Source of the DNA: an uncultured Candidatus Saccharibacteria bacterium
Lineage (GTDB): Bacteria > Patescibacteriota > Minisyncoccia > Phycocordibacterales > GWA1-40-21
DNA length: 41,521 nt
Direction: 5' to 3'
Assembly (NCBI GenBank): GCA_964479775.1
Contig: CAYZNH010000002.1
Location: forward strand, 1 to 41,521
Position numbers and translations under genes: made by a program. A model generated the notes under the pieces. That model was not told where the DNA came from and made no database searches. It saw only the letters and a list, made by a program, of their open reading frames with translations. Positions within the stretch are counted from its first letter, which is position 1; every line of letters starts with the position of its first letter. Positions 5,715-38,141 of the stretch are shown here, piece by piece.

Positions 5715-5786
5715 AAAGTGATCTCCTCGTGAGAATTCAATCCCCTTAAGCATCTTACCGTTTTATTTAAAATAAATATAAAATGT

Positions 5787-6003: not shown

Positions 6004-6180
6004 CTCCCAAAATTTAAGTAATATTAACATATGACTATAAATTTTGAAGACCCGAACACCAATTTCACTTACGTAAATATAACACACAACTATTATTCTA
6101 AGCCGTATAATACAAAATAGGAGATAACATATTTCTTATAAATTGGTGCGTAGGTAAATGTCCTTTATAAAGAACAAGAA

Positions 6181-10429: not shown

Positions 10430-10951
10430 ATGTCAGTAATTAAACACAAAAATCAAAGGGTTGGAATTTTTATAGATACGCAGAATTTATATCACTGTGC
10501 AAAAAATCTTTACAATGGTGCAAAGGTTAACTTTGGACAGGTAGTAAAAGATGCTTTAGCAGGAAGATCGCTTATAAGAGCAGTCGCATATGTTATAACA
10601 ACAGAATCAGGAGATGAAAAAGGTTTTTTTGATGCGCTTGAAAAAGCAGGTATAGAAACAAAAACAAAAAATTTACAAATATTTACAGGTGGTTCAAAAA
10701 AAGCCGATTGGGATGTGGGACTTGCGGTAGATGCTATCAAACTAGCACCGAAGCTTGATACAGTGATACTAGTTTCTGGAGACGGCGACTTTATTCCTCT
10801 TGTAGAATATCTAAAAGTAAACGAGGGTTGCCAAGTAGAGCTCCTTTCTTTTGGTAAATCAACATCATCAAAATTAATAGAATCAGTTGATGATTTTATA
10901 GATTTAGATCAAAATCACAGAAAATATTTGATAGGGAATTATAAGAGATAG
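10430..10951 (+). CDS. NYN-domain (LabA/DUF88-like) putative RNase
   Basis: VGIFIDTQNLYH, AVAYV, ADWDVGLAVDAI and VILVSGDGDFIPLVEYLK. Confidence 0.88.
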   Translation: MSVIKHKNQRVGIFIDTQNLYHCAKNLYNGAKVNFGQVVKDALAGRSLIRAVAYVITTESGDEKGFFDALEKAGIETKTKNLQIFTGGSKKADWDVGLAVDAIKLAPKLDTVILVSGDGDFIPLVEYLKVNEGCQVELLSFGKSTSSKLIESVDDFIDLDQNHRKYLIGNYKR

Positions 10952-11411: not shown

Positions 11412-11690
11412 ATGCCAAAGATATATCCTTCAAAACATTTCGAAAAATCCCTTAAAAAACTTTTAAAATCCGGAAATTTTGATGACACCAAACTAGAAAA
11501 AATATTAACCATACTTGAAGAAGGAGAAAAACTAGAAGCAAGACATAAAGATCATCAATTAACAGGTAATATGGCACGGTATCGTGAATGTCATATAGAA
11601 AATGATCTTTTACTTATTTATGAAATATCACAATCTGGTAATTATATAGAAGTTATTGATATTGGCAGTCATTCAGATTTATTTGAATAA
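11412..11690 (+). CDS. yafQ: YafQ/RelE-family mRNA interferase toxin
   Basis: HKDHQLTGNMARYRECHIENDLLLIYE...IGSHSDLFE matches the YafQ signature (DH.L.G....ReCHI..D.LLIY...GSHsdLF). Confidence 0.9.
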   Translation: MPKIYPSKHFEKSLKKLLKSGNFDDTKLEKILTILEEGEKLEARHKDHQLTGNMARYRECHIENDLLLIYEISQSGNYIEVIDIGSHSDLFE

Positions 11691-18324: not shown

Positions 18325-18344
18325 TATTATGTTATAATAAAAAT

Positions 18345-19200: not shown

Positions 19201-20376
19201 CTAAAATGGATTTTTTGCTCCTCTAATCTCAAAATGTAAGTGTGTACCATCACCCCCTCTAGCTGGTATAACTTTACCAGTATTACCCATTGATCCTATA
19301 ACCTGACCCTGAACAACATAAGAACCTTCTGAAACAAGAGTGTCACTTAAGTGACTATAAAGAGTCTGTGTTCCGTTTGGGTGAGAAATAACTATATAAG
19401 AACCATAACCTCCGTTCCATCCAGAAGACCTACTTATCATAACTTCACCAGAAGCCGAAGCCAATATATTTGAGCCATAAGATGAAGCAATATCAATACC
19501 ATTATAACCGTGTATTCCTTGAGTCTTTACACCACCTATAACAGGTCTAATATAATACCCCTCATATGAAGGTCCACTTCCTCCTCTATATGGATTAGAA
19601 GAACTAATAGTTTTCACTGAGCCACTAACTTTTACAGAGCCCTCTCCATCTGGAATAATTAATGTGTCACCAAGCGATAGAATTACGCCTTCCTCAAGAT
19701 TATTAAATTGGATAATTTCTTCTGAATCTGCTTTATATCTTTTAGCAATAGTACTAATCGTATCTCCTTTAACTATTGTATGTATAGTTCCAGATACAGG
19801 TAAAATAACAAGTACTTGTCCCTCTTTTAAATTTTTTACACTTACATCATTAGCCCAAATAATAGTATTCGTAGATACTCCAAACATTTCAGCTATCCCA
19901 GACAAAGTATCACCTTTTCTCACAACATACTTACTAATTTGACCAGTACTTACAGTTTCACTTATATCTGCAAAAGTCCCTGATGGTCCACTTTCTGCAA
20001 ACAAAGCTTCATTATCAACAATTGTTATATCTCCACCACCTCTAGCCCCAACAAGATCAAAATTAACAGAGCTTTGAAGTAACGGAACATTACGAGAAGT
20101 ATAACTTTCTTCAGAAATATCACTACTACTTTTTTCTTCGGACAAAAAATCAGAAATCAAAGAAAAAACACCGGCTTTTGTAATAACTGGTGTTCCAAGA
20201 ATTAACATAAACACAAAAAACCATTTTAAAAAAATGGCTAAAGATAAGGATTTTATAGATTGACCCTCGGAATCTTTTCCTCTCATAAGGTCTTTTTTAG
20301 TTATTTTTTGTAAAATAAGCCTATTTTTTAAAGGTTTTTCTGTTTCCCTGAAATCAAAACGGCTTTGTTGAGCCAT
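19201..20376 (-). CDS. LysM-domain M23 peptidoglycan metalloendopeptidase
   Basis: TM anchor, two LysM repeats (YVVRKGDTLSGIAEMFGVS; HTIVKGDTISTIAKRYKAD), and M23 motifs GIDIASSYGSNILASASGEV, YSHLS and THLHFEIR. Confidence 0.92.
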   Translation of the reverse strand: MAQQSRFDFRETEKPLKNRLILQKITKKDLMRGKDSEGQSIKSLSLAIFLKWFFVFMLILGTPVITKAGVFSLISDFLSEEKSSSDISEESYTSRNVPLLQSSVNFDLVGARGGGDITIVDNEALFAESGPSGTFADISETVSTGQISKYVVRKGDTLSGIAEMFGVSTNTIIWANDVSVKNLKEGQVLVILPVSGTIHTIVKGDTISTIAKRYKADSEEIIQFNNLEEGVILSLGDTLIIPDGEGSVKVSGSVKTISSSNPYRGGSGPSYEGYYIRPVIGGVKTQGIHGYNGIDIASSYGSNILASASGEVMISRSSGWNGGYGSYIVISHPNGTQTLYSHLSDTLVSEGSYVVQGQVIGSMGNTGKVIPARGGDGTHLHFEIRGAKNPF

Positions 20377-22480: not shown

Positions 22481-22634
22481 GGCTCGCTCGTATTTGTTTT
22501 CTAAAAGCACGATAAAACTGCCGTCAGTCACGGCAGTTTTTCTCTACTCAATAAATTTGTTGCTACAAATTTATTTCCGTAAGGCTTTTAGAAAGCAAAT
22601 ACTCGCTCGCTAGTGAAAAATACAAATACAAAAG
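22481..22634 (+). repeat. Repeat family 2, copy D1 (three-hairpin element abutting the pcrA stop codon; contains a terminator hairpin)
   Basis: Closing stem gtatttgttttctaaaagc (22490-22508) / gcttttagaaagcaaatac (22584-22602). Inner hairpins actgccg-tcagtca-cggcagt+TTTT and aataaatttgt-tgc-tacaaatttatt. Conserved linkers AGCACGATA, TTCTCTACTCA and TTCCGTAAGGC. Tail GCTAGTGAAAAATACAAATACAAAAG. Confidence 0.8.
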
Positions 22635-22892: not shown

Positions 22893-23690
22893 ATGGAAAA
22901 TCTCGTAGCCAAAAAATCACTTGGACAAAACTTTTTGAAGTCAAAAACAGCCCTAAACGCCATAATTAAAGCCGGAGAGGTGAATTCTTCTGATATTATC
23001 CTTGAAATAGGGCCTGGAAAGGGAGCTTTGACAGAAAAAATCCTAGAAACTGGTGCAAAAGTTATAGCAATAGAAAAAGATGATCGACTCATAGATTTTT
23101 TAAATGAAAAATTCGAAAAAGAAATAAAAAGTGGACAATTCACCCTTATAAATGAAGATATTTTAGAAATTGACCTAAATTCCTTAAAACTAGAACCTAA
23201 CAACTATAAATTAATCGCAAATATTCCTTATTATATAACTGGTTTAATCTTCAGAAAATTCTTAGAGAGCAAAATACAACCCTCAAAACTTGTAGTAATG
23301 GTACAGAAAGAAATTGCAGACAGAATAGTGGCAAGAGATGAAAAAGAGAGTTTATTATCTTTAAGTGTTAAATGTTATGGTGAACCAAAGAAAATTATGA
23401 AAGTTGGTAAAGAAAACTTCTCTCCAGAACCAAAAGTAGATTCTGCTATATTACTAATAGATGATATTTCTAAAAATTTCTTTAATGAAATAACAGAAGA
23501 AGCATTTTTTGAAGTTATAAAAGCTGGTTTTGCTCATAAAAGAAAAGTTCTGATTGCAAACCTTAAAAATATTTTTGCAAAAAATAATAAAAACACCAAA
23601 GAAGTTTTTACTGATTTAAAAATTTCAGAAAAATCTCGTGCAGAAGACTTAAAACTAGGGGATTGGAAAAATATTTTAAGAAAAATTTAA
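22893..23690 (+). CDS. rsmA: 16S rRNA (adenine1518/1519-N6)-dimethyltransferase
   Basis: KKSLGQNFL, EIGPGKGALTEKIL and ANIPYYIT. Confidence 0.95.
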   Translation: MENLVAKKSLGQNFLKSKTALNAIIKAGEVNSSDIILEIGPGKGALTEKILETGAKVIAIEKDDRLIDFLNEKFEKEIKSGQFTLINEDILEIDLNSLKLEPNNYKLIANIPYYITGLIFRKFLESKIQPSKLVVMVQKEIADRIVARDEKESLLSLSVKCYGEPKKIMKVGKENFSPEPKVDSAILLIDDISKNFFNEITEEAFFEVIKAGFAHKRKVLIANLKNIFAKNNKNTKEVFTDLKISEKSRAEDLKLGDWKNILRKI

Positions 23691-23726: not shown

Positions 23727-23735
23727 TGATATAAT
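23727..23735 (+). promoter_or_regulatory. Extended -10 promoter element (TGATATAAT) 7 nt upstream of the first ATG of the T4SS-like operon
   Basis: tgatataat at 23727-23735, ATG at 23743, no SD. This implies a leaderless or near-leaderless transcript. Confidence 0.45.
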
Positions 23736-23742: not shown

Positions 23743-24696
23743 ATGAAAATAGATAAAAAATATCTACCTTCTAAAAATTTTTCTATTATTATAATTTTAA
23801 TAATATGTTTTTCTACTTTTATAGCAATCTATTTCTATAAAAAAGAAAATTTGTCTGTATACAAGAATGCTTTTATTTTAAATGATGCTTTTACATCTAA
23901 GTGGACAAAGACAAAAATAGATACCGATTTTGATGGTTTAGAAGATTGGAAAGAAATACTCTATGGCACAAATATCAATAGTAAAGATACAGACTCTGAT
24001 GGAACAGATGATAATACAGAAATAGAAAAAGGGAGAGATCCTTTAAAAGAAAATACATCAGATACCAACCAAACTCCAAACGATCTAATGGATAAAATCA
24101 TAATAGAAAAATATCAAAGTTATATAAGAGAAAATTTATACACACCATACACCAGTATCATAAAAAATAAAATTAATTCTGAAATAAGTAATGAAATAAC
24201 AAGCAATAGTAATATCACAGAGATAGTTGCCAAAAAAGTTATAGAAAATATACCCAAAATAGAATATTCTGGAAAAATAAAAGCTTCTGATTTAACCGTA
24301 GTTGAACCATCAGAAGAAAGCATAAAAGATTATTTGAGATTTTACGCACTAGAAACTAAAAACATAATTTTGTTTTTAGAAAAAGATATTAATATAATTA
24401 CTACATCAAACATAGAATCTGTTGAATATAATAAACTACTTGATTTATTATCATTTACGAAAGAAAATTTTATAAAGGCACATTTACCAGGTAATTCAGA
24501 TTGGGGTTTATCATATCACCTTGGTATAATAAATAAACTAGAAGAAATGTATTTAGAAATAGAAGACCTTAAGAAAACATACAATGAAAAAGATGATATA
24601 ATGTATTATGCATCATTAGAGTCATATTATAAATCTAGATCAGAATTAATATCCACATTAGAAATATTAGATAATATATTTGGTCTAACAAGATAA
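23743..24696 (+). CDS. Membrane-anchored protein with thrombospondin type-3-like Ca-binding repeats (T4SS-like operon gene 1)
   Basis: N-terminal TM (FSIIIILIICFSTFIAIYFY), then DTDFDGLEDWKEILYGTNINSKDTDSDGTDDNTEIEKGRDPL (DxDxDG..D..E repeats). The rest is unassigned. Confidence 0.7.
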   Translation: MKIDKKYLPSKNFSIIIILIICFSTFIAIYFYKKENLSVYKNAFILNDAFTSKWTKTKIDTDFDGLEDWKEILYGTNINSKDTDSDGTDDNTEIEKGRDPLKENTSDTNQTPNDLMDKIIIEKYQSYIRENLYTPYTSIIKNKINSEISNEITSNSNITEIVAKKVIENIPKIEYSGKIKASDLTVVEPSEESIKDYLRFYALETKNIILFLEKDINIITTSNIESVEYNKLLDLLSFTKENFIKAHLPGNSDWGLSYHLGIINKLEEMYLEIEDLKKTYNEKDDIMYYASLESYYKSRSELISTLEILDNIFGLTR

Positions 24697-24699
24697 AAA

Positions 24700-26121
24700 A
24701 TGTTTTTCAAAACAACTAAAAAATATTTCGCGTTAATAATTATATTTATCTCTTTTTCTGTATTTATTAAAATTAATGCACAGGTGCCAGTATATATCGT
24801 TGGTAGTGAACCTTATATTAAATTTTGGGTTACTACAGACCCTCTTAATAATGAATACCCAACAACTTTAAAAGTCAAAGACGAAGATTTAGTTAAAATA
24901 CTCGAAAATATTGCTTCGACAACAGAAAACCTATACGCAGAAACTCTCAGAAACAACTATTGGACACTATATAATGAAGAAACCAGAAATGAAAAGGAAC
25001 AATCAATAGCAAAATATAAAGCTCTTAAATTAGAAAATTTAATTGAGGAAAATATATTGAGTTGGGTCAACGAGGGTTTTAACATTGATAAAGAAGGGCA
25101 AAATGGACATCCTGCATATATAGAAGATGAGGCCGTTTTCTTTGATAATATTGAAATCAAAATGAGAGAAAATTTTCAAAAATTAATTGAAACATATTAT
25201 CAATACGCTCCAGAAGATGAGAAAAATTATCTAGAAAAAATATCCAAAATATTAAGATCAAAAAAAAGTAGTATTTTAGATGTAAGTGATTATTATCTAG
25301 AAGGTGACGATGAATCATTATCAGATGACGAAGTAGAAGGTTGGGATAATTGGTTGGGATTAAATACAGACAAATTTACCAATCCAGTAATAGCTTTTTT
25401 AATCGCTAAAGAAAATTTAGATGATCTTATTAATACTGAAAAAGATAAGTACAGAAACGAAATAGCAAATGGTAATGGTTTTTTATCATTCAAAAAATGT
25501 AATATAGAATATTATAATATTGAAACAGGACAACTTGGTTATGATGGAGAGGATGAACCACCTCCTGGAGATTCTTTCTATGGAGACCCTTATTATGTTG
25601 ATAATATTTGGTCTAGTGCACCAGGAGCAACTTATCCGGTAGTATCTTGCACTACAATAATTCCTGGTTATTTAATAGCTGAACAAGTTAGTGATATATA
25701 TAGATCAAAATATAATTTCATAAAGCAAACAGCTATAAATACAGATGGTTCTGATTTAGTTTTAGACTCAATACAAGAAGAATTAAAAGAATTTCAAAAA
25801 GATATTTTTAAAACTGGTATAGTAGGAAAAAAATCTTCAGAAGGAGGAGAATCCTCTTATAAAAAATTAAATGATGCAATAGAAAAGGCCAGTGAAGAAT
25901 TGAAGAAAAGAGATGGTGGTAATACAAAAATATCTGAAGATACAGACGACCCTAGAAATACAAATAGTCGTTTTTACCCAAAAAACTTTCTAACAGGAGA
26001 TAAATGGAAAGAAATCTGGGATTTCAAACAAAATACAAATAACGATTGGTATGGTTGGTTTGATTCTTTGTATGATTGGTATAGTGATAACTGGAAATGG
26101 GATTCAAAAAAAACACAATAA
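24700..26121 (+). CDS. Secreted protein, unknown family, Trp-rich C-terminus (operon gene 2)
   Basis: Signal-like N-terminus (YFALIIIFISFSVFIKINAQ). The C-terminal end is NDWYGWFDSLYDWYSDNWKWDSKK. Confidence 0.7.
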   Translation: MFFKTTKKYFALIIIFISFSVFIKINAQVPVYIVGSEPYIKFWVTTDPLNNEYPTTLKVKDEDLVKILENIASTTENLYAETLRNNYWTLYNEETRNEKEQSIAKYKALKLENLIEENILSWVNEGFNIDKEGQNGHPAYIEDEAVFFDNIEIKMRENFQKLIETYYQYAPEDEKNYLEKISKILRSKKSSILDVSDYYLEGDDESLSDDEVEGWDNWLGLNTDKFTNPVIAFLIAKENLDDLINTEKDKYRNEIANGNGFLSFKKCNIEYYNIETGQLGYDGEDEPPPGDSFYGDPYYVDNIWSSAPGATYPVVSCTTIIPGYLIAEQVSDIYRSKYNFIKQTAINTDGSDLVLDSIQEELKEFQKDIFKTGIVGKKSSEGGESSYKKLNDAIEKASEELKKRDGGNTKISEDTDDPRNTNSRFYPKNFLTGDKWKEIWDFKQNTNNDWYGWFDSLYDWYSDNWKWDSKKTQ

Positions 26122-26151
26122 AAACTTACTTGTGATATAATTTAACAGTTC

Positions 26152-28560
26152 ATGAAATATTTTTCTTTTAAAAAAATTATCTTTTGTTTGTTGTTCGTAA
26201 CCATTTTGTCTATAATTCCAACAAACAACGCTTCTGCTGATACTTCTAATTGGCTTCTTTCCAAAGTAACATCAGTAACGAACTCTATTGTATCAAACAC
26301 AGTCGAACCTTTTATAACTGGTATGACCACCATTGTATTAAAATTTGTACAAGTCAATTTTGAATTTATTTGGATACCGATTGCTGACTATGTTGTTGCT
26401 CTGGGGGGTAAATTATTAAACTACTCTATAGAATTCACAATATTTTCATCTTATGGTTCCTCAGGAAACCCACTAAAAACTTTTGATGCCTCCATAAAAG
26501 AAATATGGGTAATAATAAGAGATACAATTAATATAGTCTTCATTTTTACCTTACTTTATATAGCTATTCAAAGAATATTAGGATCATTTAAAAAGGAAAT
26601 TTTTGTTGGCGTTTTAATATCGGCAGTTTTTGTAAATTTCAGTTTTTTTATAACAAGGACAGCTATTGATATGGGAAATATTCTTACATCTTCTATATAC
26701 AATCAAATTGAAATAAAATCTAAACAATTTGACTTAAAAGAAGACAAAATAACAGATTCTATCTTACAAGGTATTTCAGGAACAAAAAGTAGCATAAAAT
26801 TAAGCGAAATTCTTAGAAGTATAGTGGGGACTGATTCTGTAAACAAGATAGCGGTATTAAAAGATTTTAATCCAGAAAATACAAGAGACGCAGTGGGTAG
26901 TACTTTATTAAGATTTATAATGTTAATAGTACTAGGTTTTGTTTTTTTATTAATGTCTTTCTTACTTGTAGGCAGATTCATAATGTTAATATTTTTAATG
27001 GCCTCTTCACCCATAGGATTTCTTTGGGGTTCAGTACCACAGATAGCAAAATATGCTAGTAGTTGGTGGAATAATTTAATAAGCCAAATAGCTATAGCCC
27101 CAATTTTTATGTTCTTTATGTTGATAGTAATCAACATCTCTCAAAATGATGGACTAAAAACAGCAAGAACGGGGTCAGCAAGTGTTGGTCTTTTCTTTAA
27201 TTATATATTAATGATAGGTTTGTTAATGTATTCAGTAAAGATAACCAAAAAAATGGGTGGTGCTGTAACAAACCTTGCAGGAAAAGCTACTTCTTTTGTG
27301 GCCGGAGCAGCGCTTGGTGCCGTTACTGGTGGAACAGCCCTTGTTGGCAGACAAGTTGTTGGTAGACTCGCTGCAAGAACTGCTAATAGTGCAATCGGAA
27401 CAAGACTTCAACAATCAGCAGCAAAAGGTGGTTTTGCGGGTGGTTTATCTAATCTAGCACTCAAAGGAATCAAAAGTACAGCAAGTTCAAGTTTTGATGT
27501 AAGGGGTTCAAAAACAATACAAGGATCCTTTGGACAAATTAAAAGTATTTCAGGAGGAGCAATAGATATCAAAGGGGCGATGGATTCTGTTGGTAATTTT
27601 GGTAAAGCAAAAGCTGGTGGTTACGAAGAATGGCTAAAAAATAAAAATGAAACTGGTAAAAAAGCGGTTGGAAATTATACAGAAATGGTTAATGAGGTGG
27701 AAAAAGACGCAGAGAAAAAAGCACAAAAAGATAATAAAGTTAAAGAAAAGAGAGATGCTGCTAGGATAGCAAAAGAAAAATTAGATAGACTAGATAATAT
27801 GTTATCTACTGCTGGAACAGAAGATACAACAAAAGCAACACTTCTAATACAAGAAGAAAATCTTGCAAAACAGGAGTTAGACAAGGTAGAGAGAAAAATC
27901 TCACAGACAAAAAATCCCGTCGAAATATCAAAACTAACAATAGAAAGAGAAAAGAGAAAAGAGGAACACAAGAAAAAGAAAGAAGAGAAAGATAAAATAT
28001 TAAAGAAAAATGCAGATATACAAAGATTAACCTCACAAAAGAACACTGCTGAACAAGATTACAATAACAAAAAAGCAGAAAAAGATCTTGCAGAAGAAAA
28101 AACAGCCTCTGGTCTATCAAACATGGCAGAAAATGAATTTATTACTAGAGTTCCTTCAACAAACGCAACAAAAGCGGCTTATGAACAAGCGAAACAAAGA
28201 ATTAAACAACTTAGAGACCAACAGACAAACAATAAAGATAATTTTGATAACAACCTAAAAACAAAAGTAGAGTACGAAAGAGACGAAGCAGAATTACAGA
28301 ATCAAATCAAAGAAATGATTAAAGAAGCCGACGAGTTTAAAGCTAAAGGTGTTAAAGAACAAATGAAAACAATTGAAGATCTCGTCTTACAAAACAGACC
28401 TAAGGGTGATCCTTTGATTGATATAGTAAACAAGAGAAGAATGAAAAATGATTTTAAAGAAAGACTAAAAAATAAGAGGTTGTCTCTAATGACAAAAGAA
28501 GAAAGAAGAAAGATGATTGAAATAATAGAAGAAGAAGAAAAAAATAAAGATAAAAAATAA
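26152..28560 (+). CDS. VirB6/TrbL-like polytopic membrane protein fused to a ~300-aa Lys/Glu-rich coiled-coil tail (operon gene 3)
   Basis: Signal peptide, at least 6 TM helices, a Gly/Ala-rich segment (GGAVTNLAGKATSFVAGAALGAVTGGTALVG...) as seen after the TM core of TrbL/VirB6 proteins, then KEKRDAARIAKEKLDRL...EEEEKNKDKK. Confidence 0.75.
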   Translation: MKYFSFKKIIFCLLFVTILSIIPTNNASADTSNWLLSKVTSVTNSIVSNTVEPFITGMTTIVLKFVQVNFEFIWIPIADYVVALGGKLLNYSIEFTIFSSYGSSGNPLKTFDASIKEIWVIIRDTINIVFIFTLLYIAIQRILGSFKKEIFVGVLISAVFVNFSFFITRTAIDMGNILTSSIYNQIEIKSKQFDLKEDKITDSILQGISGTKSSIKLSEILRSIVGTDSVNKIAVLKDFNPENTRDAVGSTLLRFIMLIVLGFVFLLMSFLLVGRFIMLIFLMASSPIGFLWGSVPQIAKYASSWWNNLISQIAIAPIFMFFMLIVINISQNDGLKTARTGSASVGLFFNYILMIGLLMYSVKITKKMGGAVTNLAGKATSFVAGAALGAVTGGTALVGRQVVGRLAARTANSAIGTRLQQSAAKGGFAGGLSNLALKGIKSTASSSFDVRGSKTIQGSFGQIKSISGGAIDIKGAMDSVGNFGKAKAGGYEEWLKNKNETGKKAVGNYTEMVNEVEKDAEKKAQKDNKVKEKRDAARIAKEKLDRLDNMLSTAGTEDTTKATLLIQEENLAKQELDKVERKISQTKNPVEISKLTIEREKRKEEHKKKKEEKDKILKKNADIQRLTSQKNTAEQDYNNKKAEKDLAEEKTASGLSNMAENEFITRVPSTNATKAAYEQAKQRIKQLRDQQTNNKDNFDNNLKTKVEYERDEAELQNQIKEMIKEADEFKAKGVKEQMKTIEDLVLQNRPKGDPLIDIVNKRRMKNDFKERLKNKRLSLMTKEERRKMIEIIEEEEKNKDKK

Positions 28561-29249
28561 TGCAAGATCAAGATAAACTAAAAGAATATTTGGCAAAAAT
28601 ACCACAAGACATAAAAGATATTATGTATTCTTTAGATTATCAAAAACTTCTTGAGGAAATTACAAAAAAGAACAACTTATTGATAGATCAAGCTGGTAAT
28701 CTTGAAGTAGAAACAACTTTAGTTTTGGCTGGATTAAATCCACTCAGGGATTATATTGATAATCTAGCTAATTCTCTTGAAATATCAAAAGAAAAAGCAG
28801 GGGAGATAGCAAAAGATGTAGATAATTTAATTTTCAAAAGTATTAGAAAATCATTAGAACAAATAAACGAAGAGGATGATCAGGCTGAATATATACTTGA
28901 ACACAAAGCGCAAGACGAACTAAATAAAGAAAAATTACTTTTTGGAATAGAAAACCCTAAAAAAATAGAGGAGGAATCTGTATCTGTAAGTTCTTTAGAA
29001 TCAAACTCAAACATACCAAGAACAACCGAGAAGTTTTCTAATGGAATAGAAGTTAATACAGAGCAGGGTGGTGAAATACCAAGAAAAGCAATAGTTCCAA
29101 CACAAGTATTAATTAAAAATGAATCACCAGTGAATAAAATTATAGAACTAAAAACAACAGAACCCGTTGTCTTACAAAAAGAAAATATTATTATAGAAGA
29201 AAAAACAAAACTTCCAAACAAAGTAGATCCTTATAGAGAACAAGCATAA
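28560..29249 (+). CDS. Acidic soluble protein, unknown family (operon gene 4)
   Basis: Its ATG overlaps the preceding TAA by 1 nt. No TM segment and no recognisable motif. Confidence 0.65.
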   Translation: MQDQDKLKEYLAKIPQDIKDIMYSLDYQKLLEEITKKNNLLIDQAGNLEVETTLVLAGLNPLRDYIDNLANSLEISKEKAGEIAKDVDNLIFKSIRKSLEQINEEDDQAEYILEHKAQDELNKEKLLFGIENPKKIEEESVSVSSLESNSNIPRTTEKFSNGIEVNTEQGGEIPRKAIVPTQVLIKNESPVNKIIELKTTEPVVLQKENIIIEEKTKLPNKVDPYREQA

Positions 29250-29250
29250 A

Positions 29251-29673
29251 ATGGAATTTCAAGTACCACAATTTATAGAGGTTGAAGATAGAATATTTGG
29301 CCCACTAACACTAAAACAAGGGTTGTATCTTGGTGGTGGAATAGGAGCCGCTATTGCCATTTATCTATATATTCCATATAAATTTATAGGTATTTTAATT
29401 GGAGCACCAATAGTTGCTTTTTCTGCCGCCCTAGCTTTTTATAAAATAAACGGTAGATCACTTACAGACACCTTAGAGAATGCGACTTATTTCTTTTCAA
29501 AAGAAAAATTATACCTATGGAAGAAAAATGAAAACAAAATAAAAACAGACACTAAAGAACAAACAGAGACAATTAAAAGAACTCTTGTTGTTCCAAAAAT
29601 TTCAGAAAGTAAACTCAAAGACTTAACTTGGAGTTTAGATATTAAAGAAAACCTTTTATCTAAGAAGAATTAA
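29251..29673 (+). CDS. PrgI-family (VirB3-like) small membrane protein (operon gene 5)
   Basis: MEFQVPQFIEVEDRIFGPLTLKQGLYLGGGIGAAIAIYLY followed by a second TM helix. This is the typical PrgI-family N-terminus, and the gene sits upstream of the VirB4-like ATPase. Confidence 0.75.
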   Translation: MEFQVPQFIEVEDRIFGPLTLKQGLYLGGGIGAAIAIYLYIPYKFIGILIGAPIVAFSAALAFYKINGRSLTDTLENATYFFSKEKLYLWKKNENKIKTDTKEQTETIKRTLVVPKISESKLKDLTWSLDIKENLLSKKN

Positions 29674-29714
29674 TATAAATATTATTACTATATAAAATTA
29701 TATAGTGTATAATA

Positions 29715-30335
29715 ATGCATAAGATGACAACACCAAAAGCCACACAAGACTTTATTCCAATTAAAGAGGTTAGGGATGGGGTAATATCATTAAAAAATGG
29801 ATCACTAGCTTCCATAATAATGGTTTCTTCTGTTAACTTTATGTTAAAATCACAGGATGAACAAGAAGCTATTATTTTCCAATTTCAAAATTTCTTAAAT
29901 TCATTAGATTTTTCAGTTCAAATATCTATTCAATCTCGTGAACTTGATATAAGACCTTATATAGCCTCTTTAGAAGCTAGATATAAAAATGAATTAGGTG
30001 ATTTAATGAAAATACAGATAAGAGAATATATCAATTTTATTAGAAACTTTGTTGATCAGTCAAATATTATGACAAAAAACTTTTTCGTCATAATACCTTT
30101 TACACCAGCAATAATAGATACAAAAAAAGCCCTAAATAAAACAAATTCTTCACAAGATAAATTCTCAAATTTTGAAGAAAACAGAACACAATTAGAACAA
30201 AGGATAAATACAGTTTCTCAAGGACTAACAAGATGCGGTCTAAGAAGTATACAACTTGGAACAGAAGAGGTTGTCGAATTATTATATAAAACATTAAACC
30301 CTGGTGATCTAGAAAAACCAATAATACCAGCTTAA
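29715..30335 (+). CDS. Hypothetical protein with the block order of a VirB4 N-terminal domain (operon gene 6)
   Basis: QDFIPIKEVRDGVISLKNGSLASIIMVSSVNFMLKSQDEQEAII...LDFSVQISIQSRELDI parallels, block by block, the N-terminal ~200 aa of the downstream ATPase. Similarity was judged by eye only. Confidence 0.6.
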   Translation: MHKMTTPKATQDFIPIKEVRDGVISLKNGSLASIIMVSSVNFMLKSQDEQEAIIFQFQNFLNSLDFSVQISIQSRELDIRPYIASLEARYKNELGDLMKIQIREYINFIRNFVDQSNIMTKNFFVIIPFTPAIIDTKKALNKTNSSQDKFSNFEENRTQLEQRINTVSQGLTRCGLRSIQLGTEEVVELLYKTLNPGDLEKPIIPA

Positions 30336-30346
30336 TATATAAACAA

Positions 30347-32176
30347 ATGGGTATATTAGATTTTTTAAATAAAAACAATAACGAATCGAAAAAAGACACT
30401 GAATTAACATCATTTTTACCACAAGAAATATATGATGCGGGTGTTTTGGAGTTACAAGACGTAATCGCCCCATCTGCATTACAAATATCAGCAAAACAAC
30501 TAAACTTGGGGGAAAAAATAGTTAGAACCTTTTTTGTTATATCTTATCCAAGATTTTTATCTGAGAATTGGTTTTCACCAATAATTAATTTAGATAAAAT
30601 TTTTAATATATCAATCTTTGTTCACCCAATAGATACAGCGACAGTATTAAGAAAATTTCAAAAAAAAGTTGCTGAAGTACAAAGCCAAATAAATTCAAGA
30701 GAAGAGAAGGGTTTAGTTAGAGATCCTATATTAGACACAGCATATCAAGATTTAGAGTCTCTTAGAGATAAACTACAACAAGCACAAGAAAGACTGTTCA
30801 ATGTTGGATTGTATATAAGTTTATATGCAGATTCTGAAGAGGAGATGGATAGAATGGAATCAGAAATAAAATCTATATTAGAAGCAAAACTTATATATAT
30901 CAAACCAGCACTTTTTCAACAAGAACAAGGATATAAGAGCATACTACCGATTGCAAGTGATCAAATAAATGTTCACTCTAAACTAAATTCTTCTCCACTA
31001 TCAAGTATTTTTCCTTTTGTTTCTTTTGACTTAACCTCGGACAAGGGAATTTTGTATGGAATAAACAGACATAACGCTAGTTTGGTAATTTTTGATAGAT
31101 TTTCTTTAGAAAATTATAACTCAATTACTTTTGCTAAAGCTGGTTCTGGTAAATCATATTGTACAAAACTAGAAATATTAAGAAGTTTAATGTTTGATAC
31201 GGAAGTTATTGTTATAGACCCAGAAAAAGAATACCAATTTCTTGCAGAAGCTACTGGCGGGAAATCATTTGATATATCACTAAACTCAAACAACCATATA
31301 AATCCATTTGATTTACCAATACCAAAAGAAGATGAGTCTCCATCAGATGTACTTAGAAGTAATATTATAAATTTAGTAGGTCTATTTAGAATTATGTTGG
31401 GTGGTCTAACCCCAGAAGAAGATTCTGTTATTGATAGAGCAATATCAGAAACATACGCTCTTAAAGACATTACACCAGACTCAGACTTTTCAAACATAGA
31501 ACCGCCATTATTATCAGATTTTGAACTTGTACTTTCTGGTATGGAGGGTTCAGAATCTATAATCCAAAGATTAGCAAAATATACAAGGGGTACATGGGCT
31601 GGTTTCTTAAATAATCCTTCAAACATAAACATAAATAATAAGTTTGTTGTTTTTTCTATAAGAGATATGGAAGATGAATTAAAAACAGTTGCAATGTATT
31701 TAATTACACACCATATATGGAACACAGTAAGAAGAAACATAAAAAAGAGACTCCTTGTTGTAGATGAAGCTTGGATTATGATGAAATCTGACGATGCGGC
31801 ATCTTTTCTCTTTGGAATAGCAAAAAGATGTAGAAAATATTACTTAGGACTTGCAACAATAACCCAAGATGTTGATGACTTCTTAAATTCACCATATGGA
31901 ATGCCTATTGTTACAAACTCATCAATACAAATTTTACTTAAACAATCTCCAACAGCAGTTGATCATTTACAAAAAGTCTTTAATCTTACAAATGAAGAAA
32001 AATATCTACTACTTGAATCAGATGTGGGGGAGGGTATATTCTTCGTTGGACTTAAACATGTTGCAATTAAAATAATTGCTTCATATACAGAAGATCAAAT
32101 AGTTACTTCTGATCCATCACAATTATTAAATATTAAGAAAGCAAAAGAAGAATTAAAAATATCACAAGGTTTTTAA
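30347..32176 (+). CDS. virB4: VirB4-like type IV secretion ATPase (operon gene 7)
   Basis: N-domain (TFFVISYPRFLSENWFSPIINLD...SIFVHPID...REEKGLVRDP), Walker A FAKAGSGKSY, Walker B RLLVVDEAW, then ATITQDVDDF. Confidence 0.88.
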   Translation: MGILDFLNKNNNESKKDTELTSFLPQEIYDAGVLELQDVIAPSALQISAKQLNLGEKIVRTFFVISYPRFLSENWFSPIINLDKIFNISIFVHPIDTATVLRKFQKKVAEVQSQINSREEKGLVRDPILDTAYQDLESLRDKLQQAQERLFNVGLYISLYADSEEEMDRMESEIKSILEAKLIYIKPALFQQEQGYKSILPIASDQINVHSKLNSSPLSSIFPFVSFDLTSDKGILYGINRHNASLVIFDRFSLENYNSITFAKAGSGKSYCTKLEILRSLMFDTEVIVIDPEKEYQFLAEATGGKSFDISLNSNNHINPFDLPIPKEDESPSDVLRSNIINLVGLFRIMLGGLTPEEDSVIDRAISETYALKDITPDSDFSNIEPPLLSDFELVLSGMEGSESIIQRLAKYTRGTWAGFLNNPSNININNKFVVFSIRDMEDELKTVAMYLITHHIWNTVRRNIKKRLLVVDEAWIMMKSDDAASFLFGIAKRCRKYYLGLATITQDVDDFLNSPYGMPIVTNSSIQILLKQSPTAVDHLQKVFNLTNEEKYLLLESDVGEGIFFVGLKHVAIKIIASYTEDQIVTSDPSQLLNIKKAKEELKISQGF

Positions 32177-32223
32177 TTACTTGTTTAAAAATTAATATTT
32201 ATTGTGATATAATTAATCATAAT

Positions 32224-33210
32224 ATGATAGTTTTCTATAGAAAAATTTATTTATTTGTTACAATATTTTTCTTTGTGTTTTCTAACACGTCTTTTTCTCA
32301 AGATAATTCTCTTGTAAGTATATCCTTCTCACCCAAAAATCCTAGCCCAGGACACGAGGTTTCGTTTGAAATAAGTAGTTATTATCTAAACTTAGATATA
32401 TCAAAAATATCTTGGTATGTAGATGGTAATCTTAAAATGGAAGGAGTGGGCGAAACAAAAACAAAGATAAAAGCGGGCAATATTGGACAAACAAAAGAAG
32501 TTAAAGTTATTATCACCAACAAAGATAGTTCTAAAATAGAAAAAATAGTAAAAATCAAACCAATAACAATCAGTATGATTGTTGAACCACAATCATATAC
32601 ACCACCATTTTATAGAGGGAAGACTCTCTTACCATACGAAGGAACAACAAAAATCTCTGTGGTAACAGAAATAACAGACTTAAATGGTAAAAAAATATCA
32701 GAAGACAATATGATTTTTAAATGGTTTGAAAATAGCATATTGAAACAAGGGGGTGTTGGTAAAAAGGTTTTTAATGTAGAAAACAGAATTCCTGTTGATG
32801 GCACAGAAATAAAATTAAAAATATATAATTTAAACGAAGAACTATTAGCAGAGACCTCAAAAATACTCACATACACGTTACCCCAAATAAATATATATGA
32901 AAATAGCCCTATATATGGGATATTATATAACCAAGCCATAACTACAGACTATCTACTCGGGGAAAAAGAAGAAATTAAAATAATTTCAGAACCATTTTTC
33001 TTTGATAATCAAATAGATAACATTAAATATGTTTGGAAAATTAATAATATACTGGTAGAAAAACAAGAAAATAACAACGAACTTATACTTAAAAAAATAG
33101 ATAATGTTTCAAAGGGTGTTGCAAATATATCAATAGAAGCCAAAAATCAAAATAAAATATATCAATCAGCAAAAAATGCTATAAAAATAGGATATGGACA
33201 AGAAGAATAA
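32224..33210 (+). CDS. Secreted protein built from three tandem beta-sandwich-like repeats (operon gene 8)
   Basis: Signal-like N-terminus. A recurring module is marked by ISWYVDGNL / IFKWFENSIL / KYVWKINNIL at roughly 100-aa spacing. Confidence 0.7.
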   Translation: MIVFYRKIYLFVTIFFFVFSNTSFSQDNSLVSISFSPKNPSPGHEVSFEISSYYLNLDISKISWYVDGNLKMEGVGETKTKIKAGNIGQTKEVKVIITNKDSSKIEKIVKIKPITISMIVEPQSYTPPFYRGKTLLPYEGTTKISVVTEITDLNGKKISEDNMIFKWFENSILKQGGVGKKVFNVENRIPVDGTEIKLKIYNLNEELLAETSKILTYTLPQINIYENSPIYGILYNQAITTDYLLGEKEEIKIISEPFFFDNQIDNIKYVWKINNILVEKQENNNELILKKIDNVSKGVANISIEAKNQNKIYQSAKNAIKIGYGQEE

Positions 33211-33598
33211 TAAAAACATATTAGATATTATATATATTGGTATACTACAAACACTAGTGACTCTTTTTCCTATAAAATTACTAGCTGTAGAATATATACC
33301 AATGCAACAAGACCTTGGTATAGGGGCTAATCTTAATACTAGTGATTTATCTTCCTTTGTTGGTGAAATATATAATCTTGGAATCGCAATAGCTGTTGTC
33401 CTTGCTGTATTAGAAATAATGTATGCTGGAATACAATATATGATAACAGATAATGCTGGTAAAAAAGGAGCTAGTATTGAAAGACTTACTGGTGCCTTAA
33501 TTGGTCTCGGATTAGCTATTGCTTCTTATCTAATATTAAACACAATAAACCCACAAATATTAGACTTAGATAGTAATAAACTTATAAATCCAAAATAA
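33194..33598 (+). CDS. T4SS pilin-like protein (VirB2/TrbC-type, two-helix) (operon gene 9)
   Basis: Signal/TM segment, then NLGIAIAVVLAVLEIMYAGIQYMITDNAGKKGASIERLTGALIGLGLAIASYLILNTI. This helix, short charged loop, helix layout is typical of VirB2-type pilins and of the CPR T4SS_pilin family. It overlaps the upstream gene by 17 nt. Confidence 0.75.
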   Translation: MDKKNNKNILDIIYIGILQTLVTLFPIKLLAVEYIPMQQDLGIGANLNTSDLSSFVGEIYNLGIAIAVVLAVLEIMYAGIQYMITDNAGKKGASIERLTGALIGLGLAIASYLILNTINPQILDLDSNKLINPK

Positions 33599-33599
33599 T

Positions 33600-34859
33600 A
33601 TGTCAAAAAGAAACCTTATATTAACAATAATATTAATCTTTATTATACTAATAGTTAGTTTTTTCTATTTTTATTTTTTTAATAATTCAAACAATCAAAA
33701 CATAAATAAAGAACCAACAGAAGAATTTCCTTTCGGCACAACACAAAATGAAGAAACAAATATTAATAACGGGGTAAATGGTGGATCAATATTAAACAAC
33801 CTCTTTGGAAGCAGTACTTTAACAGAGACAGAAAATAATAATCTCATAAAAATCAGACAAATATATAAAAAACCTATATCTGGATTAACTTTTATAGAGA
33901 AGAAGCTTAGGTTTATAGACAGGGCAAGCGGTAATATTTATGATTATCAAACAGAAAACCCAACAATTGATCCTATACGAGTAACCAACACAACAATACC
34001 TAAAATCCAAGAATCAGTATTTTTTAATAGAGGACAAAATGTAATTCTAAGATATATTGATGATTTAAAATCAATAACTAGCTTTATAGGTAAAATAAGT
34101 ACTTCATCTGATCCAAATATTAATGAAATAAACGGTGAATTTCTATCAAAAGACATTAAACAGATTGTTGTTAGTCCATCAAACAATAATATTTTTGAAT
34201 TAGCAGAAAAACAAAACACGGGTGTTTTTGGTTATATATATTCAACAACAACAATAAACAACAAAAAAGAAATCTTTAATTCTCCAATATCTCTCTGGAA
34301 TATTTCTTGGCCAAAAGAAGAAATAATAACCTTCACCACGAAACCAAACCATAAAGACTACGGTTTTATGTTTTTCTTTAATACAAAAACATATTCATTC
34401 GATAGAATATTGGGAGAAATAATTGGTCTAACAACAAACACAAACTCTACGGCAGAAGAGGTTTTCTATTCAGAAAATAAAGTAAACTCACTTAAACTTA
34501 AAATATACGATATTAAAAATTTAGAGAACAAAAGTTTAGAGATTAATACAATTTCAGATAAATGTATTTGGAGTAAGTTTAATAAAAAAATAATATATTG
34601 TGCGGTTCCAAACATTATTCCAAAAGGAAATTATCCAGACGACTGGTATCAAGGAAAAATATCTTTTAATGATAGTTTTTGGAAGATAAATATAGAAGAG
34701 GGGACGACAAAAATAATTTATGAAAATAAAAACAATAGCGGTTTAGAATTAGATGTCATAAATTTAAATATAAGTCCTGATGATAAATATATTTCTTTTA
34801 TAAATAAAAACGACTTGAGTTTATGGTTACTAGATATAAGCGAAAATACACAAAATTAA
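33600..34859 (+). CDS. Membrane-anchored protein with a probable beta-propeller ectodomain (operon gene 10)
   Basis: N-terminal TM (LILTIILIFIILIVSFFYFYFF). The C-terminal SPDDKYISFINKNDLSLWLLDI resembles TolB/DPP-type propeller blades. Tentative. Confidence 0.68.
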   Translation: MSKRNLILTIILIFIILIVSFFYFYFFNNSNNQNINKEPTEEFPFGTTQNEETNINNGVNGGSILNNLFGSSTLTETENNNLIKIRQIYKKPISGLTFIEKKLRFIDRASGNIYDYQTENPTIDPIRVTNTTIPKIQESVFFNRGQNVILRYIDDLKSITSFIGKISTSSDPNINEINGEFLSKDIKQIVVSPSNNNIFELAEKQNTGVFGYIYSTTTINNKKEIFNSPISLWNISWPKEEIITFTTKPNHKDYGFMFFFNTKTYSFDRILGEIIGLTTNTNSTAEEVFYSENKVNSLKLKIYDIKNLENKSLEINTISDKCIWSKFNKKIIYCAVPNIIPKGNYPDDWYQGKISFNDSFWKINIEEGTTKIIYENKNNSGLELDVINLNISPDDKYISFINKNDLSLWLLDISENTQN

Positions 34860-34865
34860 ATTTTT

Positions 34866-34889
34866 AAAAACCGCTTCCAAGCGGTTTTT
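34866..34889. terminator. Bidirectional terminator closing the operon
   Basis: aaaaaccgcttccaagcggttttt. Confidence 0.8.
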
Positions 34890-34892
34890 AAA

Positions 34893-36104: not shown

Positions 36105-36446
36105 TTATACAATTAATCTAATTATTTTTTCTACATCATTTCTTAGTCCAACCTCACTAAAGGTGTCTTTTTCTTTTTGTTTAAAAATAAATACAAAACT
36201 ATTATTTTTAAAGGTTTTTTTAATTAAATTATTTTCTTCTATAATAGAGGATATTATTCTCTTTATTCTATGTCTACCAACGGATGTTTTTTCACTCTTT
36301 TTAGAAACAACAATAGAAAAACCATTATTTCTTCTATTTAAAATAGAAAGAACTTTAATATAAACAAAAAAACCATTAATAGAAGACCCTTTCTTAATAG
36401 TTTCTTCTATTTCAGCCTTGTTTAATCTAAAATTTCTACTCAACAT
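36105..36446 (-). CDS. rnpA: Ribonuclease P protein component
   Basis: LSRNFRLNKAEIEETIKKG...VGRHRIKRIISSII. The rpmH-rnpA-yidC-jag order is conserved. Confidence 0.9.
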   Translation of the reverse strand: MLSRNFRLNKAEIEETIKKGSSINGFFVYIKVLSILNRRNNGFSIVVSKKSEKTSVGRHRIKRIISSIIEENNLIKKTFKNNSFVFIFKQKEKDTFSEVGLRNDVEKIIRLIV

Positions 36447-36502
36447 ATAATAACAATATTATATCAAATATATAATAAAAAGAGCTTTTTATGCTCTTTT
36501 TA

Positions 36503-36637
36503 TTATACAGTTACTCTTTTTCTACCTTTTTGTCTTCTTCTTTTAATTGTATTTTTTCCATATTTAGTTTTACTTCTTACTAAATATCCGTGAGTTTTCT
36601 GTCTCTTCTTTTTGTTTGGTTGATATGTAAATGACAT
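36503..36637 (-). CDS. rpmH: 50S ribosomal protein L34 (below the ORF-track size cut-off)
   Basis: My own translation of the minus strand: MSFTYQPNKKKRQKTHGYLVRSKTKYGKNTIKRRRQKGRKRVTV, then stop. Confidence 0.93.
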   Translation of the reverse strand: MSFTYQPNKKKRQKTHGYLVRSKTKYGKNTIKRRRQKGRKRVTV

Positions 36638-36800: not shown

Positions 36801-38141
36801 ATGTCAGAAAACAAAATACTTTGGAACAACGTGCTTTCCCAACTCGAACTAAACTTATCAAAAGCTAATTTTAGTATGTGGTTCAAAGATACTTTTATTA
36901 TTAAACAAGACGATGGTGTTGTTTTTCTTGGTGTACCAAACATTTTTGTTAAAGACTGGCTTATAAACAAATATCATAAAGACATTCTAAAAAACTTAAG
37001 AGTTTTTGGTGAACACATAAGAAATGTTGAATATGTTGTAGCAAAAGAGGAAAATAAAAAGGAGACAAAAGAAGATATATTAAATAATTCAGAAAACATT
37101 CTTCCTTTAAATGATTTATATATAAACAAAGAAGATAATCTTAACCCAAAGTATACTTTTGAAACTTTTGTTATTGGACCTTTTAATGAGCTCGCCCATG
37201 CAGCATCTCAAGCTATTCTTAAAAAAACAGCAACATATAATCCACTTTTTATTTTTGGTAGCACAGGACATGGAAAAACACATCTTATACAAGCGGTTGG
37301 TAATTATTTTAAAACAAGAGATTCTACAAAAAAAATCTTTTATATGACATCAGAGAAATTTACCAACGATTATTTAAATGCTTTAAATAACGGAACAATA
37401 AATGCTTTTAAAGAAAGATGTAAAAAATATGACCTTCTTATTGTAGATGATATTCAATTTTTATCTGCAAAAACAAAAACACAAGAAGAATTTTTTAATC
37501 TTTTTAATCACTTTCATGACAATGGTAAACAATTGATTTTTTCTTCTGACAAACATCCTAATTTTATACCTGATATAGAAGAGAGAATTAAGTCTAGATT
37601 CAATGCTGGTATGATTGTAGAGATACAAAAACCAGATTATGAATCAAGAATACAGATTTTTAGAAAAAAATCATCTTTAATGAAAATGAATATTTCTAAC
37701 GATATAATCGAGTTTTTAGCATCATCTGTGGAAGGAAATATAAGGGAACTTGAAGGTATTTTAAATATAATTTCTTGTCAAAGCAGTCTTAAAAACAAAG
37801 AACTTTGTTTAAACGAAATTAAAGATTTAATTAAAAATACATCAAAACCAAAGAAAAATGTTTCTACAAAAGAAATTATTAAAACAATCTCTGATTTTTA
37901 TGGAATAGAAGAAAATCAAATATATGAAAAAGGTAGAAAAAAAGAAATAATTAAACCAAGACAAGTAATAATGTATATTTTAAGAGAAGATTTTGATATT
38001 TCTTTTCCGTCGATAGGGGAGAAGGTTGGAAACAGAGATCATTCAACAGTTATTCATTCTTATGAAAAGATTAAAAATGATATAAAAACAGATCCAGAAC
38101 TAACAGAAGAAATAAACCAGATTAGATCAATGTTGAAATAA
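36801..38141 (+). CDS. dnaA: Chromosomal replication initiator DnaA
   Basis: FETFVIGPFNELAHAA, GSTGHGKTHL (Walker A), LLIVDDIQFL, the sensor region, and the C-terminal DNA-binding domain RQVIMYILRED...GNRDHSTVIHSYEKI. Confidence 0.96.
   Translation: MSENKILWNNVLSQLELNLSKANFSMWFKDTFIIKQDDGVVFLGVPNIFVKDWLINKYHKDILKNLRVFGEHIRNVEYVVAKEENKKETKEDILNNSENILPLNDLYINKEDNLNPKYTFETFVIGPFNELAHAASQAILKKTATYNPLFIFGSTGHGKTHLIQAVGNYFKTRDSTKKIFYMTSEKFTNDYLNALNNGTINAFKERCKKYDLLIVDDIQFLSAKTKTQEEFFNLFNHFHDNGKQLIFSSDKHPNFIPDIEERIKSRFNAGMIVEIQKPDYESRIQIFRKKSSLMKMNISNDIIEFLASSVEGNIRELEGILNIISCQSSLKNKELCLNEIKDLIKNTSKPKKNVSTKEIIKTISDFYGIEENQIYEKGRKKEIIKPRQVIMYILREDFDISFPSIGEKVGNRDHSTVIHSYEKIKNDIKTDPELTEEINQIRSMLK

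Follow-up and report, generated by a model that had tools for sequence, protein, structure and literature searches.

A cluster of ten genes at positions 23743-34859 of the stretch analysed here (41,521 nucleotides (nt) of contig CAYZNH010000002.1 from an uncultured Candidatus Saccharibacteria bacterium, hereafter the window) most probably encodes a vertically inherited chromosomal type IV secretion system (T4SS) of the Patescibacteria, domesticated from a monoderm conjugation apparatus of the MPF-FATA type (CD1110/CTn2-like) and serving the epibiotic lifestyle. The cluster holds a recognizable list of T4SS parts with a VirB4 ATPase that is split over two genes, it recurs as a fixed ten-gene unit that is passed on vertically, and ORF6-ORF10 are under constraint. 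The T4SS of the Patescibacteria has already been described in papers from 2023-2025, which cover its composition, the absence of relaxases, the position by dnaA and an import hypothesis, and the present observation is thus a correct rediscovery.

All ten open reading frames (ORFs) are located on the plus strand, with successive intergenic distances from ORF1 to ORF10 of 3, 30, -1, 1, 41, 11, 47, -17 and 1 nt. A preliminary description of this DNA had reported ten co-directional ORFs never more than 47 nt apart, of which two pairs overlap (at 28560 and 33194-33210) and three further pairs are only 1-3 nt apart, and upon re-reading of the coordinates all of these agree. The genes and their products are as follows (aa, amino acids; TM, transmembrane; Ig, immunoglobulin; FnIII, fibronectin type III).

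23743-24696, plus strand: ORF1, 317 aa, N-terminal TM anchor, TSP3-type Ca-binding Asp-rich repeat and a helical domain without known family
24700-26121, plus strand: ORF2, 473 aa, large acidic extracytoplasmic protein behind a signal peptide or TM anchor
26152-28560, plus strand: ORF3, 802 aa, putative VirB6-like polytopic membrane protein of the 'extended' kind, from topology, position and weak matches
28560-29249, plus strand: ORF4, 229 aa, acidic, no TM segment, VDPYRE motif at the extreme C-terminus
29251-29673, plus strand: ORF5, 140 aa, membrane hairpin of the PrgI family (VirB3-like), PF12666
29715-30335, plus strand: ORF6, 206 aa, TrsD (NCBIfam TrsD), N-terminal domain of VirB4 encoded as a separate protein
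30347-32176, plus strand: ORF7, 609 aa, VirB4 ATPase of the CD1110/MPF-FATA type, NCBIfam conju_CD1110
32224-33210, plus strand: ORF8, 328 aa, N-terminal signal/anchor helix and three tandem Ig/FnIII-like β-sandwich domains, predicted by AlphaFold
33194-33598, plus strand: ORF9, 134 aa, VirB2-like T4SS pilin, PF18895
33600-34859, plus strand: ORF10, 419 aa, N-terminal TM helix, disordered linker of about 50 aa and seven-bladed β-propeller, predicted by AlphaFold

Orthologues were detected by tblastn followed by iterated profile searches in contigs from one genome per species, where 269 stretches encode a relative; the 80 loci mentioned below are the best 80 of these 269 stretches. Judged by their profile matches, five cluster products correspond to T4SS parts, namely VirB4, TrsD, PrgI/VirB3, a VirB2-like pilin and, weakly by sequence, a VirB6-like protein. 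Four had been proposed in the preliminary description; VirB4, PrgI and the slightly sub-threshold pilin hold, as does VirB6 weakly, and since ORF6 is TrsD the count rises to five, leaving five rather than six products without a nameable family.

ORF7 scores 372 bits against the NCBIfam model conju_CD1110 (curated cutoff 325), as compared to just 17-28 bits with VirB4 models of the MPF-T type. It also matches P-loop_TraG of Pfam (2.8e-23) and the solved VirB4 domain of PDB entry 4AG5 (5e-38), spans the middle and C-terminal P-loop domains of VirB4, and contains the Walker A (FAKAGSGKSY, with GSGKS) and Walker B (LLVVDEAW, with VVDE) motifs already read in the preliminary description. The N-terminal domain is found in ORF6, 11 nt upstream of virB4: the product matches the TrsD/TraD family (NCBIfam TrsD, 7.6e-9), VirB4 models cover it only via their N-terminal approximately 180 positions, and in BLASTP it aligns with residues 25-197 of a full-length Clostridium plasmid VirB4 (E 2e-13). 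Thus, VirB4 is split over two genes, and the trsD-like ORF6 is a separate gene in 76 of the 80 loci.

ORF5 exceeds the gathering score of the PrgI family (35.1 bits against 27 for PF12666), has its hydrophobic hairpin at residues 31-63, and has orthologues in 74 loci. For ORF9, PF18895 (T4SS_pilin) matches 17 of 28 orthologues (top 2e-11), the window protein itself matches the NCBIfam Mbov_0395 pilin-like protein (1.9e-4), and the topology consists of a leader TM segment and two hydrophobic helices with a basic loop between. ORF3 opens with a signal/TM segment at the N-terminus and has about 5-6 TM helices (residues 121-364); a Gly/Ala-rich stretch then leads to a Lys/Glu-rich C-terminal region of about 300 aa. 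The gene precedes that of PrgI, like virB6 in the Clostridium botulinum plasmid pCDC3875.

The source organism falls in the Paceibacteria. Database homologues of ORF7 exceed 8,000; the top 120 share at least 79% identity with it, those among them that bear a name belonging to Paceibacterota or Patescibacteria, and the closest relatives are all Paceibacterota (68-98% identity). The best 80 stretches derive from Paceibacteria-type metagenome-assembled genomes (Nomura-, Yonath-, Tagabacteria, Paceibacterota), their VirB4 being 68-90% identical, and essentially all loci of sufficient length carry the ten orthologues in unchanged order. The flanks are shared as well, with rsmA upstream, often preceded by uvrD, and jag/yidC/rnpA/dnaA/dnaN downstream, while a deeper subclade (about 70% VirB4 identity) has a second pilin-domain gene after ORF10. 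In the window the cluster lies between rsmA/ksgA and jag/khpB, yidC, rnpA, rpmH, dnaA and dnaN, flanks that the preliminary description had identified correctly. Since relatives share the order of the ten genes as well as the genes on either side, the comparison indicates that the cluster is vertically inherited on the chromosome, rather than an integrated conjugative element (ICE).

Constraint was assessed for ORF6-ORF10 of the cluster by dN/dS between the window and a related contig (L082, VirB4 97% identical), with dS of about 0.7-1.1 and similar over the cluster genes tested. The ratio is 0.02 for VirB4 (ORF7), 0.05 for TrsD (ORF6), 0.07-0.08 for jag and yidC, and 0.17-0.20 for ORF8, ORF9 and ORF10 (ORF8 0.20; ORF10 0.18). 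ORF6-ORF10 are all under purifying selection, and the exposed parts evolve approximately ten times faster than the VirB4 ATPase. Against a second relative (L001), VirB4 is 90% identical and rsmA and uvrD 89%, as compared to 46% for ORF8, 43% for ORF3, 39% for the pilin and 36% for ORF2; in deeper comparisons (e.g. L042) VirB4 retains 70% identity versus about 51% for DnaA. Among the flanking genes, rnpA (36105-36446, minus strand) displays a dN/dS of about 0.57 and 57% identity to its counterpart (L082:6298-6639), a constraint far below that of its neighbours.

The five accessory genes (ORF1, 2, 4, 8 and 10) are lineage-specific and co-inherited in fixed order with the T4SS parts. Pfam and NCBIfam scans of the five products gave nothing above threshold, and it is fair to speak of a largely uncharacterised machine, as had been proposed, with five such components instead of six. 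ORF1, ORF2, ORF8 and ORF10 are membrane-anchored or secreted, and ORF4 is presumably cytoplasmic. Profiles from orthologue alignments of ORF1, ORF2 and ORF4 returned chance-level matches among PDB sequences, except for a weak resemblance of ORF1 to lanmodulin/EF-hand that is confined to the Asp-rich stretch. ORF1 has its TM segment at residues 13-31 and orthologues in 53 loci, and PF18884 (TSP3_bac) matches 8 of 30 orthologues. ORF2, with orthologues in 55 loci whose lengths vary widely, has two invariant cysteines (C267 and C317) and no Pfam or PDB match; a Pfam scan of all its orthologues gave sporadic PKD/InlB-repeat matches only. In ORF4, likewise without a family match, the VDPYRE motif (window 29226-29249) is placed 2-6 residues from the C-terminus, with D223, Y225 and E227 invariant. 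Of 67 family members 61 carry it, as does a single other ORF across the 80 loci, and the tail could represent a docking or recognition peptide.

The AlphaFold model of ORF8 (mean predicted local distance difference test score, pLDDT, of 89; orthologues in 74-76 loci) has multi-Ig/FnIII chains as its top Foldseek matches, whereas that of ORF10 (mean pLDDT 85) recovers generic WD40/TolB/Lp49 propellers at E of about 1e-10. The whole-chain TM-scores are low, and the Foldseek results for both models support a fold class, not a function. ORF10 belongs to a large family, 2,254 clusters at 50% identity with E<=1e-30, and none of the members among the matches listed carries a precomputed Pfam domain; as modelled, it is a membrane-anchored propeller from a large family without a Pfam model. 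Both predicted scaffolds, the Ig domains of ORF8 and the propeller of ORF10, are typical of surface proteins.

We next consider the transcription signals, listed here.

23727-23735, plus strand: extended -10 element TGATATAAT, ends 7 nt before the ORF1 ATG
26133-26141, plus strand: second copy of TGATATAAT, between ORF2 and ORF3 (gap of 30 nt), 10 nt ahead of the ATG of ORF3
32205-32213, plus strand: third copy of TGATATAAT, between ORF7 and ORF8 (gap of 47 nt), 10 nt ahead of the ATG of ORF8
36458-36466, minus strand: further extended -10 element
18330-18338, plus strand: further extended -10 element
34863-34892: bidirectional intrinsic-terminator-like hairpin between ORF10 and jag/khpB, 13-bp stem with 4 G-C pairs, T-runs on both strands

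Both the extended -10 element ahead of ORF1 and the bidirectional terminator had been reported in the preliminary description and were recovered. The exact motif has five copies in the window versus 1.5 expected, three of which directly precede ORF1, ORF3 and ORF8. An extended -10 motif moreover precedes 21 of 74 ORF8 orthologues and 13 of 58 ORF3 orthologues, with 1.2% in background windows. Internal promoters before ORF3 and ORF8 are probable on these grounds, and the 'operon' would then probably be read from three or more promoters, giving transcripts whose leaders are very short or missing. The transcript of ORF1 in particular would be leaderless or near-leaderless, because the element ends 7 nt before the ATG. 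Across the five window sites, extended -10 elements end just 6-11 nt before start codons, and Shine-Dalgarno sequences are not visible upstream of the genes inspected; the sequence suggests that leaderless or near-leaderless mRNAs are widespread in this genome. A generic sigma-70 hexamer scan was uninformative in this AT-rich DNA, with promoter-like hexamer pairs as a class not being enriched (77 found versus 79.8 expected).

Wang et al. (2023) found an apparent T4SS (SEML1_0006-0019) to be essential for epibiotic growth of Southlakia epibionticum (Se), the one Saccharibacterium studied genetically, resembling Gram-positive conjugative systems, with essential pilins and without recognisable coupling and relaxase proteins (PMC10633639). 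Quiñonero-Coronel et al. (2025) detected VirB4 in 2,417 of 3,035 Patescibacteria genomes as a monophyletic clade nested in MPF-FATA, accompanied by TrsD (placed in the pGO1 subclass), PrgI/VirB3, VirB6 and VirB2-like pilins, and located near dnaA, dnaN, ksgA, rnpA and rpmH, above all in Paceibacteria (PMC12102498). A 2025 FEMS review makes the same points on the T4SS (PMC12857230), the Se T4SS genes and pilin array being essential for epibiotic growth (PMC10633639; PMC12857230), and in a 2026 preprint tubular structures that may be T4SS pili are described from the interface of parasite and host (10.64898/2026.06.21.733656). The window cluster shares with this clade the MPF-FATA VirB4, the separate TrsD, the PrgI/VirB3 protein, the VirB2-like pilin, the chromosomal position close to dnaA/dnaN/ksgA/rnpA/rpmH and, less certainly, a VirB6-like protein. 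It also lacks a relaxase and an adjacent type IV coupling protein (T4CP): the relaxase, VirD4/TcpA and VirB11 families have zero matches among ORFs of at least 90 aa in the 41.5 kb window, the scope of all absence statements on these proteins, and within which the corresponding claim of the preliminary description is borne out. Its wider notion of a chromosomal, origin-proximal, non-conjugative apparatus without relaxase in a cell of the Candidate Phyla Radiation is supported by our analyses and the literature alike. On the other hand, the array of six pilins in Se is replaced by a single short one in this Paceibacteria version, no peptidase or lysozyme is encoded directly downstream of virB4, and ORF1, 2, 4, 8 and 10 are added, which fall outside the T4SS-component analysis of the 2025 study (PMC12102498).

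The link to the MPF-FATA systems of Firmicutes (CTn2/CD1110; pCDC3875; TrsD/TrsE of pGO1; Prg of pCF10) is visible in the VirB4 score above the CD1110 cutoff, in the separate TrsD-like protein, in the collinear VirB6-PrgI-VirB4-(SLT) order and in a monoderm architecture without VirB7/9/10. The best plasmid VirB4 proteins, from Firmicutes and Actinobacteria and annotated as CD1110 family, are 30-37% identical to ORF7. In pCDC3875 the order is VirD4 - hypothetical - VirB6 (CD1112) - PrgI - hypothetical - VirB4 - hypothetical - SLT, and ORF3 - ORF4 - PrgI - TrsD/VirB4 of the window are collinear with this module, minus VirD4; further downstream, the pilin-domain gene of relatives frequently bears an SLT domain. 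Unlike these relatives, however, the cluster has no VirD4, relaxase, oriT or plasmid/ICE context, other surface proteins are present with no PrgB-type adhesin detected, and it includes a VirB2-like pilin, which the Gram-positive systems do not have.

Outside the bacterial conjugation systems, a closer functional analogue than ComB is archaeal Ced, domesticated chromosomal conjugation machinery that mediates cellular DNA transfer. Ced/Ted and the window system are both conjugation-derived, chromosomally domesticated and not on a mobile genetic element, and both pair a VirB4-like ATPase with a polytopic membrane protein and VirB2-like pilins, a resemblance that is architectural only; Ced belongs to another domain of life with another envelope, and imports DNA for repair after UV (PMC9905601). 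The analogy to ComB of Helicobacter pylori, raised in the preliminary description, is by comparison weak. ComB is likewise derived from VirB and without relaxase, VirD4 or VirB11, and a role in import has been proposed for the Patescibacteria T4SS too. It is nonetheless a diderm MPF-T system with ComB7/8/9/10 that feeds ComEC, whereas the window VirB4 is of the monoderm MPF-FATA type, the VirB7, VirB8, VirB9 and VirB10 families have no match by sequence in Pfam and NCBIfam scans of the cluster, and growth of Se requires the T4SS but not ComEC. Thus, the type of VirB4, the unmatched VirB7-10 and an essential function that is ComEC-independent in Se all speak against a close parallel. The Ced/Ted system, too, is not known to have a relaxase.

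A mechanism can be sketched as follows. VirB4/TrsD would dock onto a platform of PrgI and the VirB6-like protein in the single membrane, and spend ATP to extract pilin from the membrane and build a surface filament or conduit. Assembly would proceed without VirB11, as in F-type systems, which work in its absence. The exposed Ig, propeller and Ca-binding proteins may replace the VirB7/9/10 core of diderms or the adhesins of Gram-positive systems, carrying the structure across the wall and contacting the host cell, and the machine would in this manner serve the epibiotic lifestyle, not the transfer of a mobile element.

Several observations weigh against this picture. The VirB6 assignment of ORF3 is weak by sequence, although topology and gene position fit: the match to the NCBIfam CD3337/EF1877 mobilome membrane protein (2.7e-5, residues 242-369) is far below the family cutoff, TrbL matches 2 of 30 orthologues, and hhalign against the plasmid CD1112 VirB6 is not significant (E 0.01, probability 4%). 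ORF9 reaches 26.3 bits with T4SS_pilin, slightly below the gathering threshold (26.6). Wall-enzyme domains (SLT, YkuD or M15) often come after the pilin-like domain in relatives, and the ORF9-type module could therefore be a membrane anchor instead of a polymerising pilin; pilus formation in the Paceibacteria systems is, moreover, a step that we infer. Finally, neither a VirB8-like nor a VirB1-like protein was identified by sequence in the cluster. As for the relatives themselves, proteins found with the ORF9 profile measure about 330 aa in several loci (L047:14963-15991, L064:12767-13783, L027:12873-13961 and others). In some of them a T4SS_pilin domain is extended at the C-terminus, by YkuD in L027 and by a region of no family in L002; others have SLT, or once Peptidase_M15, as their match and no significant pilin match, and in many loci ORF10 is flanked by two such genes.

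What the machine transports can be weighed between several readings. As a special case of the domesticated epibiotic T4SS, it may be an importer, taking up host DNA, RNA or nucleotides in a ComB-like or, more closely, Ced/Ted-like manner, a possibility that we hold tentatively. T4CP and relaxase were not found in the cluster, and precedents without T4CP include importers such as Ced (PMC9905601). Import of DNA or other macromolecules has been proposed for the Patescibacteria system (PMC12102498), and feeding on host RNA has been described in a cultivated relative, in a preprint that counts PNPase and VirB4 among the ancient traits of the lineage (10.64898/2026.06.21.733656). PNPase, ComM and a nuclease-family gene occur in the same window as well; however, the neighbourhood of PNPase and ComM is ordinary origin-proximal housekeeping content. 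Against import, the ComB-type parts (VirB7/8/9/10 and an MPF-T VirB4) are unmatched by sequence. Natural transformation of Saccharibacteria furthermore needs type IV pili and ComEC, and a Saccharibacterium from which comEC is deleted loses competence yet stays viable, whereas its T4SS is essential (PMC12857230). Any import would consequently be ComEC-independent. A more elaborate form of this idea, in which ORF1, 2, 4, 8 and 10 are an undescribed wall-spanning host-contact module that makes the Gram-positive conjugation core a T4CP-independent conduit taking host macromolecules (RNA or DNA), with the ORF4 tail docking on VirB4/TrsD, is in our view doubtful.

Somewhat less likely than import as such is export, in which effector proteins or toxins would be delivered to the interior or the surface of the host bacterium in the manner of pathogen T4SSs. 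The fast-evolving, contact-dependent surface parts fit an interface of host interaction, and ORF4, a soluble acidic protein whose C-terminal motif is conserved, might serve as an adaptor or be a substrate itself. Most effector-translocating T4SSs, on the other hand, need a T4CP for recruitment of substrates, of which there is none in or near the cluster, and a distant T4CP homologue is non-essential in Se despite the T4SS being essential (PMC12102498); nor were candidate effector genes recognised in the cluster.

Genuine conjugation, for which other parts of the genome would have to supply the T4CP and a relaxase that escaped recognition, is very unlikely. VirD4-like homologues are present in 2,918 of 3,035 Patescibacteria genomes, mostly far from virB4, and the authors allow for "very different relaxases yet to be found", yet just 109 relaxases were detected in these 3,035 genomes and VirB4 exchange between classes is rare (PMC12102498). 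The locus is, in addition, inherited vertically between housekeeping genes, and the dispensable T4CP of Se argues against conjugation as it does against export.

An ICE or its decaying remnant is effectively refuted: the genes do derive from conjugation machinery, and a tyrosine recombinase (Phage_integrase and N-terminal SAM-like domains; 8667-9650, minus strand) is encoded in the window, but this is of the Xer type and 14 kb from the cluster with housekeeping genes between, no att-like direct repeats bracket the cluster, its G+C matches that of the flanks, dozens of species share the insertion context, and the ten genes are intact, with purifying selection on ORF6-ORF10. Accordingly, the earlier statement that integrase and att-like flanks are missing is correct for the borders of the cluster, and needs the recombinase as an amendment for the window.

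The surrounding genes to which the above refers are listed below. The gene jag/khpB is convergent to ORF10, and ComM and the type IV pilin gene had both been noted in the preliminary description.

22893-23690: rsmA/ksgA, upstream flank gene
36503-36637, minus strand: rpmH, flank gene
36801-38141: dnaA, flank gene
16762-18324: ComM
948-2111, minus strand: gene with a type IV pilin N-methylation motif

At 3.4 kb upstream of the cluster, a gene on the minus strand (19201-20376) encodes a LysM and M23 peptidase. VirB1-like matches in Patescibacteria frequently bear M23/LysM domains (PMC12102498), and for this reason the product could serve as the wall-opening enzyme of the T4SS. Between rpsO and PNPase, a NYN-domain ribonuclease-like gene (10430-10951, plus strand) and a YafQ/ParE-family toxin gene (11412-11690, plus strand) were observed. 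The 414-nt spacer between uvrD and rsmA contains a 19-nt inverted repeat (22490-22602) with 95% complementarity and 75 nt between its arms, in a 1-kb block with G+C above that of the neighbouring blocks. Three perfect DnaA boxes TTATCCACA on the minus strand (4479-4487, 5787-5795 and 5995-6003; 0.45 expected by chance) cluster in or beside an ORF-free stretch of about 950 bp (about 5230-6180), near the minimum of the cumulative GC skew at 9-10 kb; an Rfam search of the non-coding stretch 4380-6250 recovered no RNA family. As judged from these sequence features, oriC may be located there, about 31 kb from dnaA, and not beside dnaA.

Patescibacteria comprise a large share of bacterial diversity and are obligate epibionts. 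The T4SS is among the most conserved things that they encode, with VirB4 here being more conserved than DnaA, and the single species tested so far cannot grow on its host without it. To this published system our analysis contributes a modest annotation of accessory proteins: the definition of a fixed ten-gene unit in Paceibacteria, the predicted folds of the conserved accessory proteins ORF8 and ORF10, the TSP3 Ca-binding repeat of ORF1 and the conserved C-terminal motif of ORF4, probable internal promoters before ORF3 and ORF8, and a difference in evolutionary rate by which the host-facing parts of the machine stand out.

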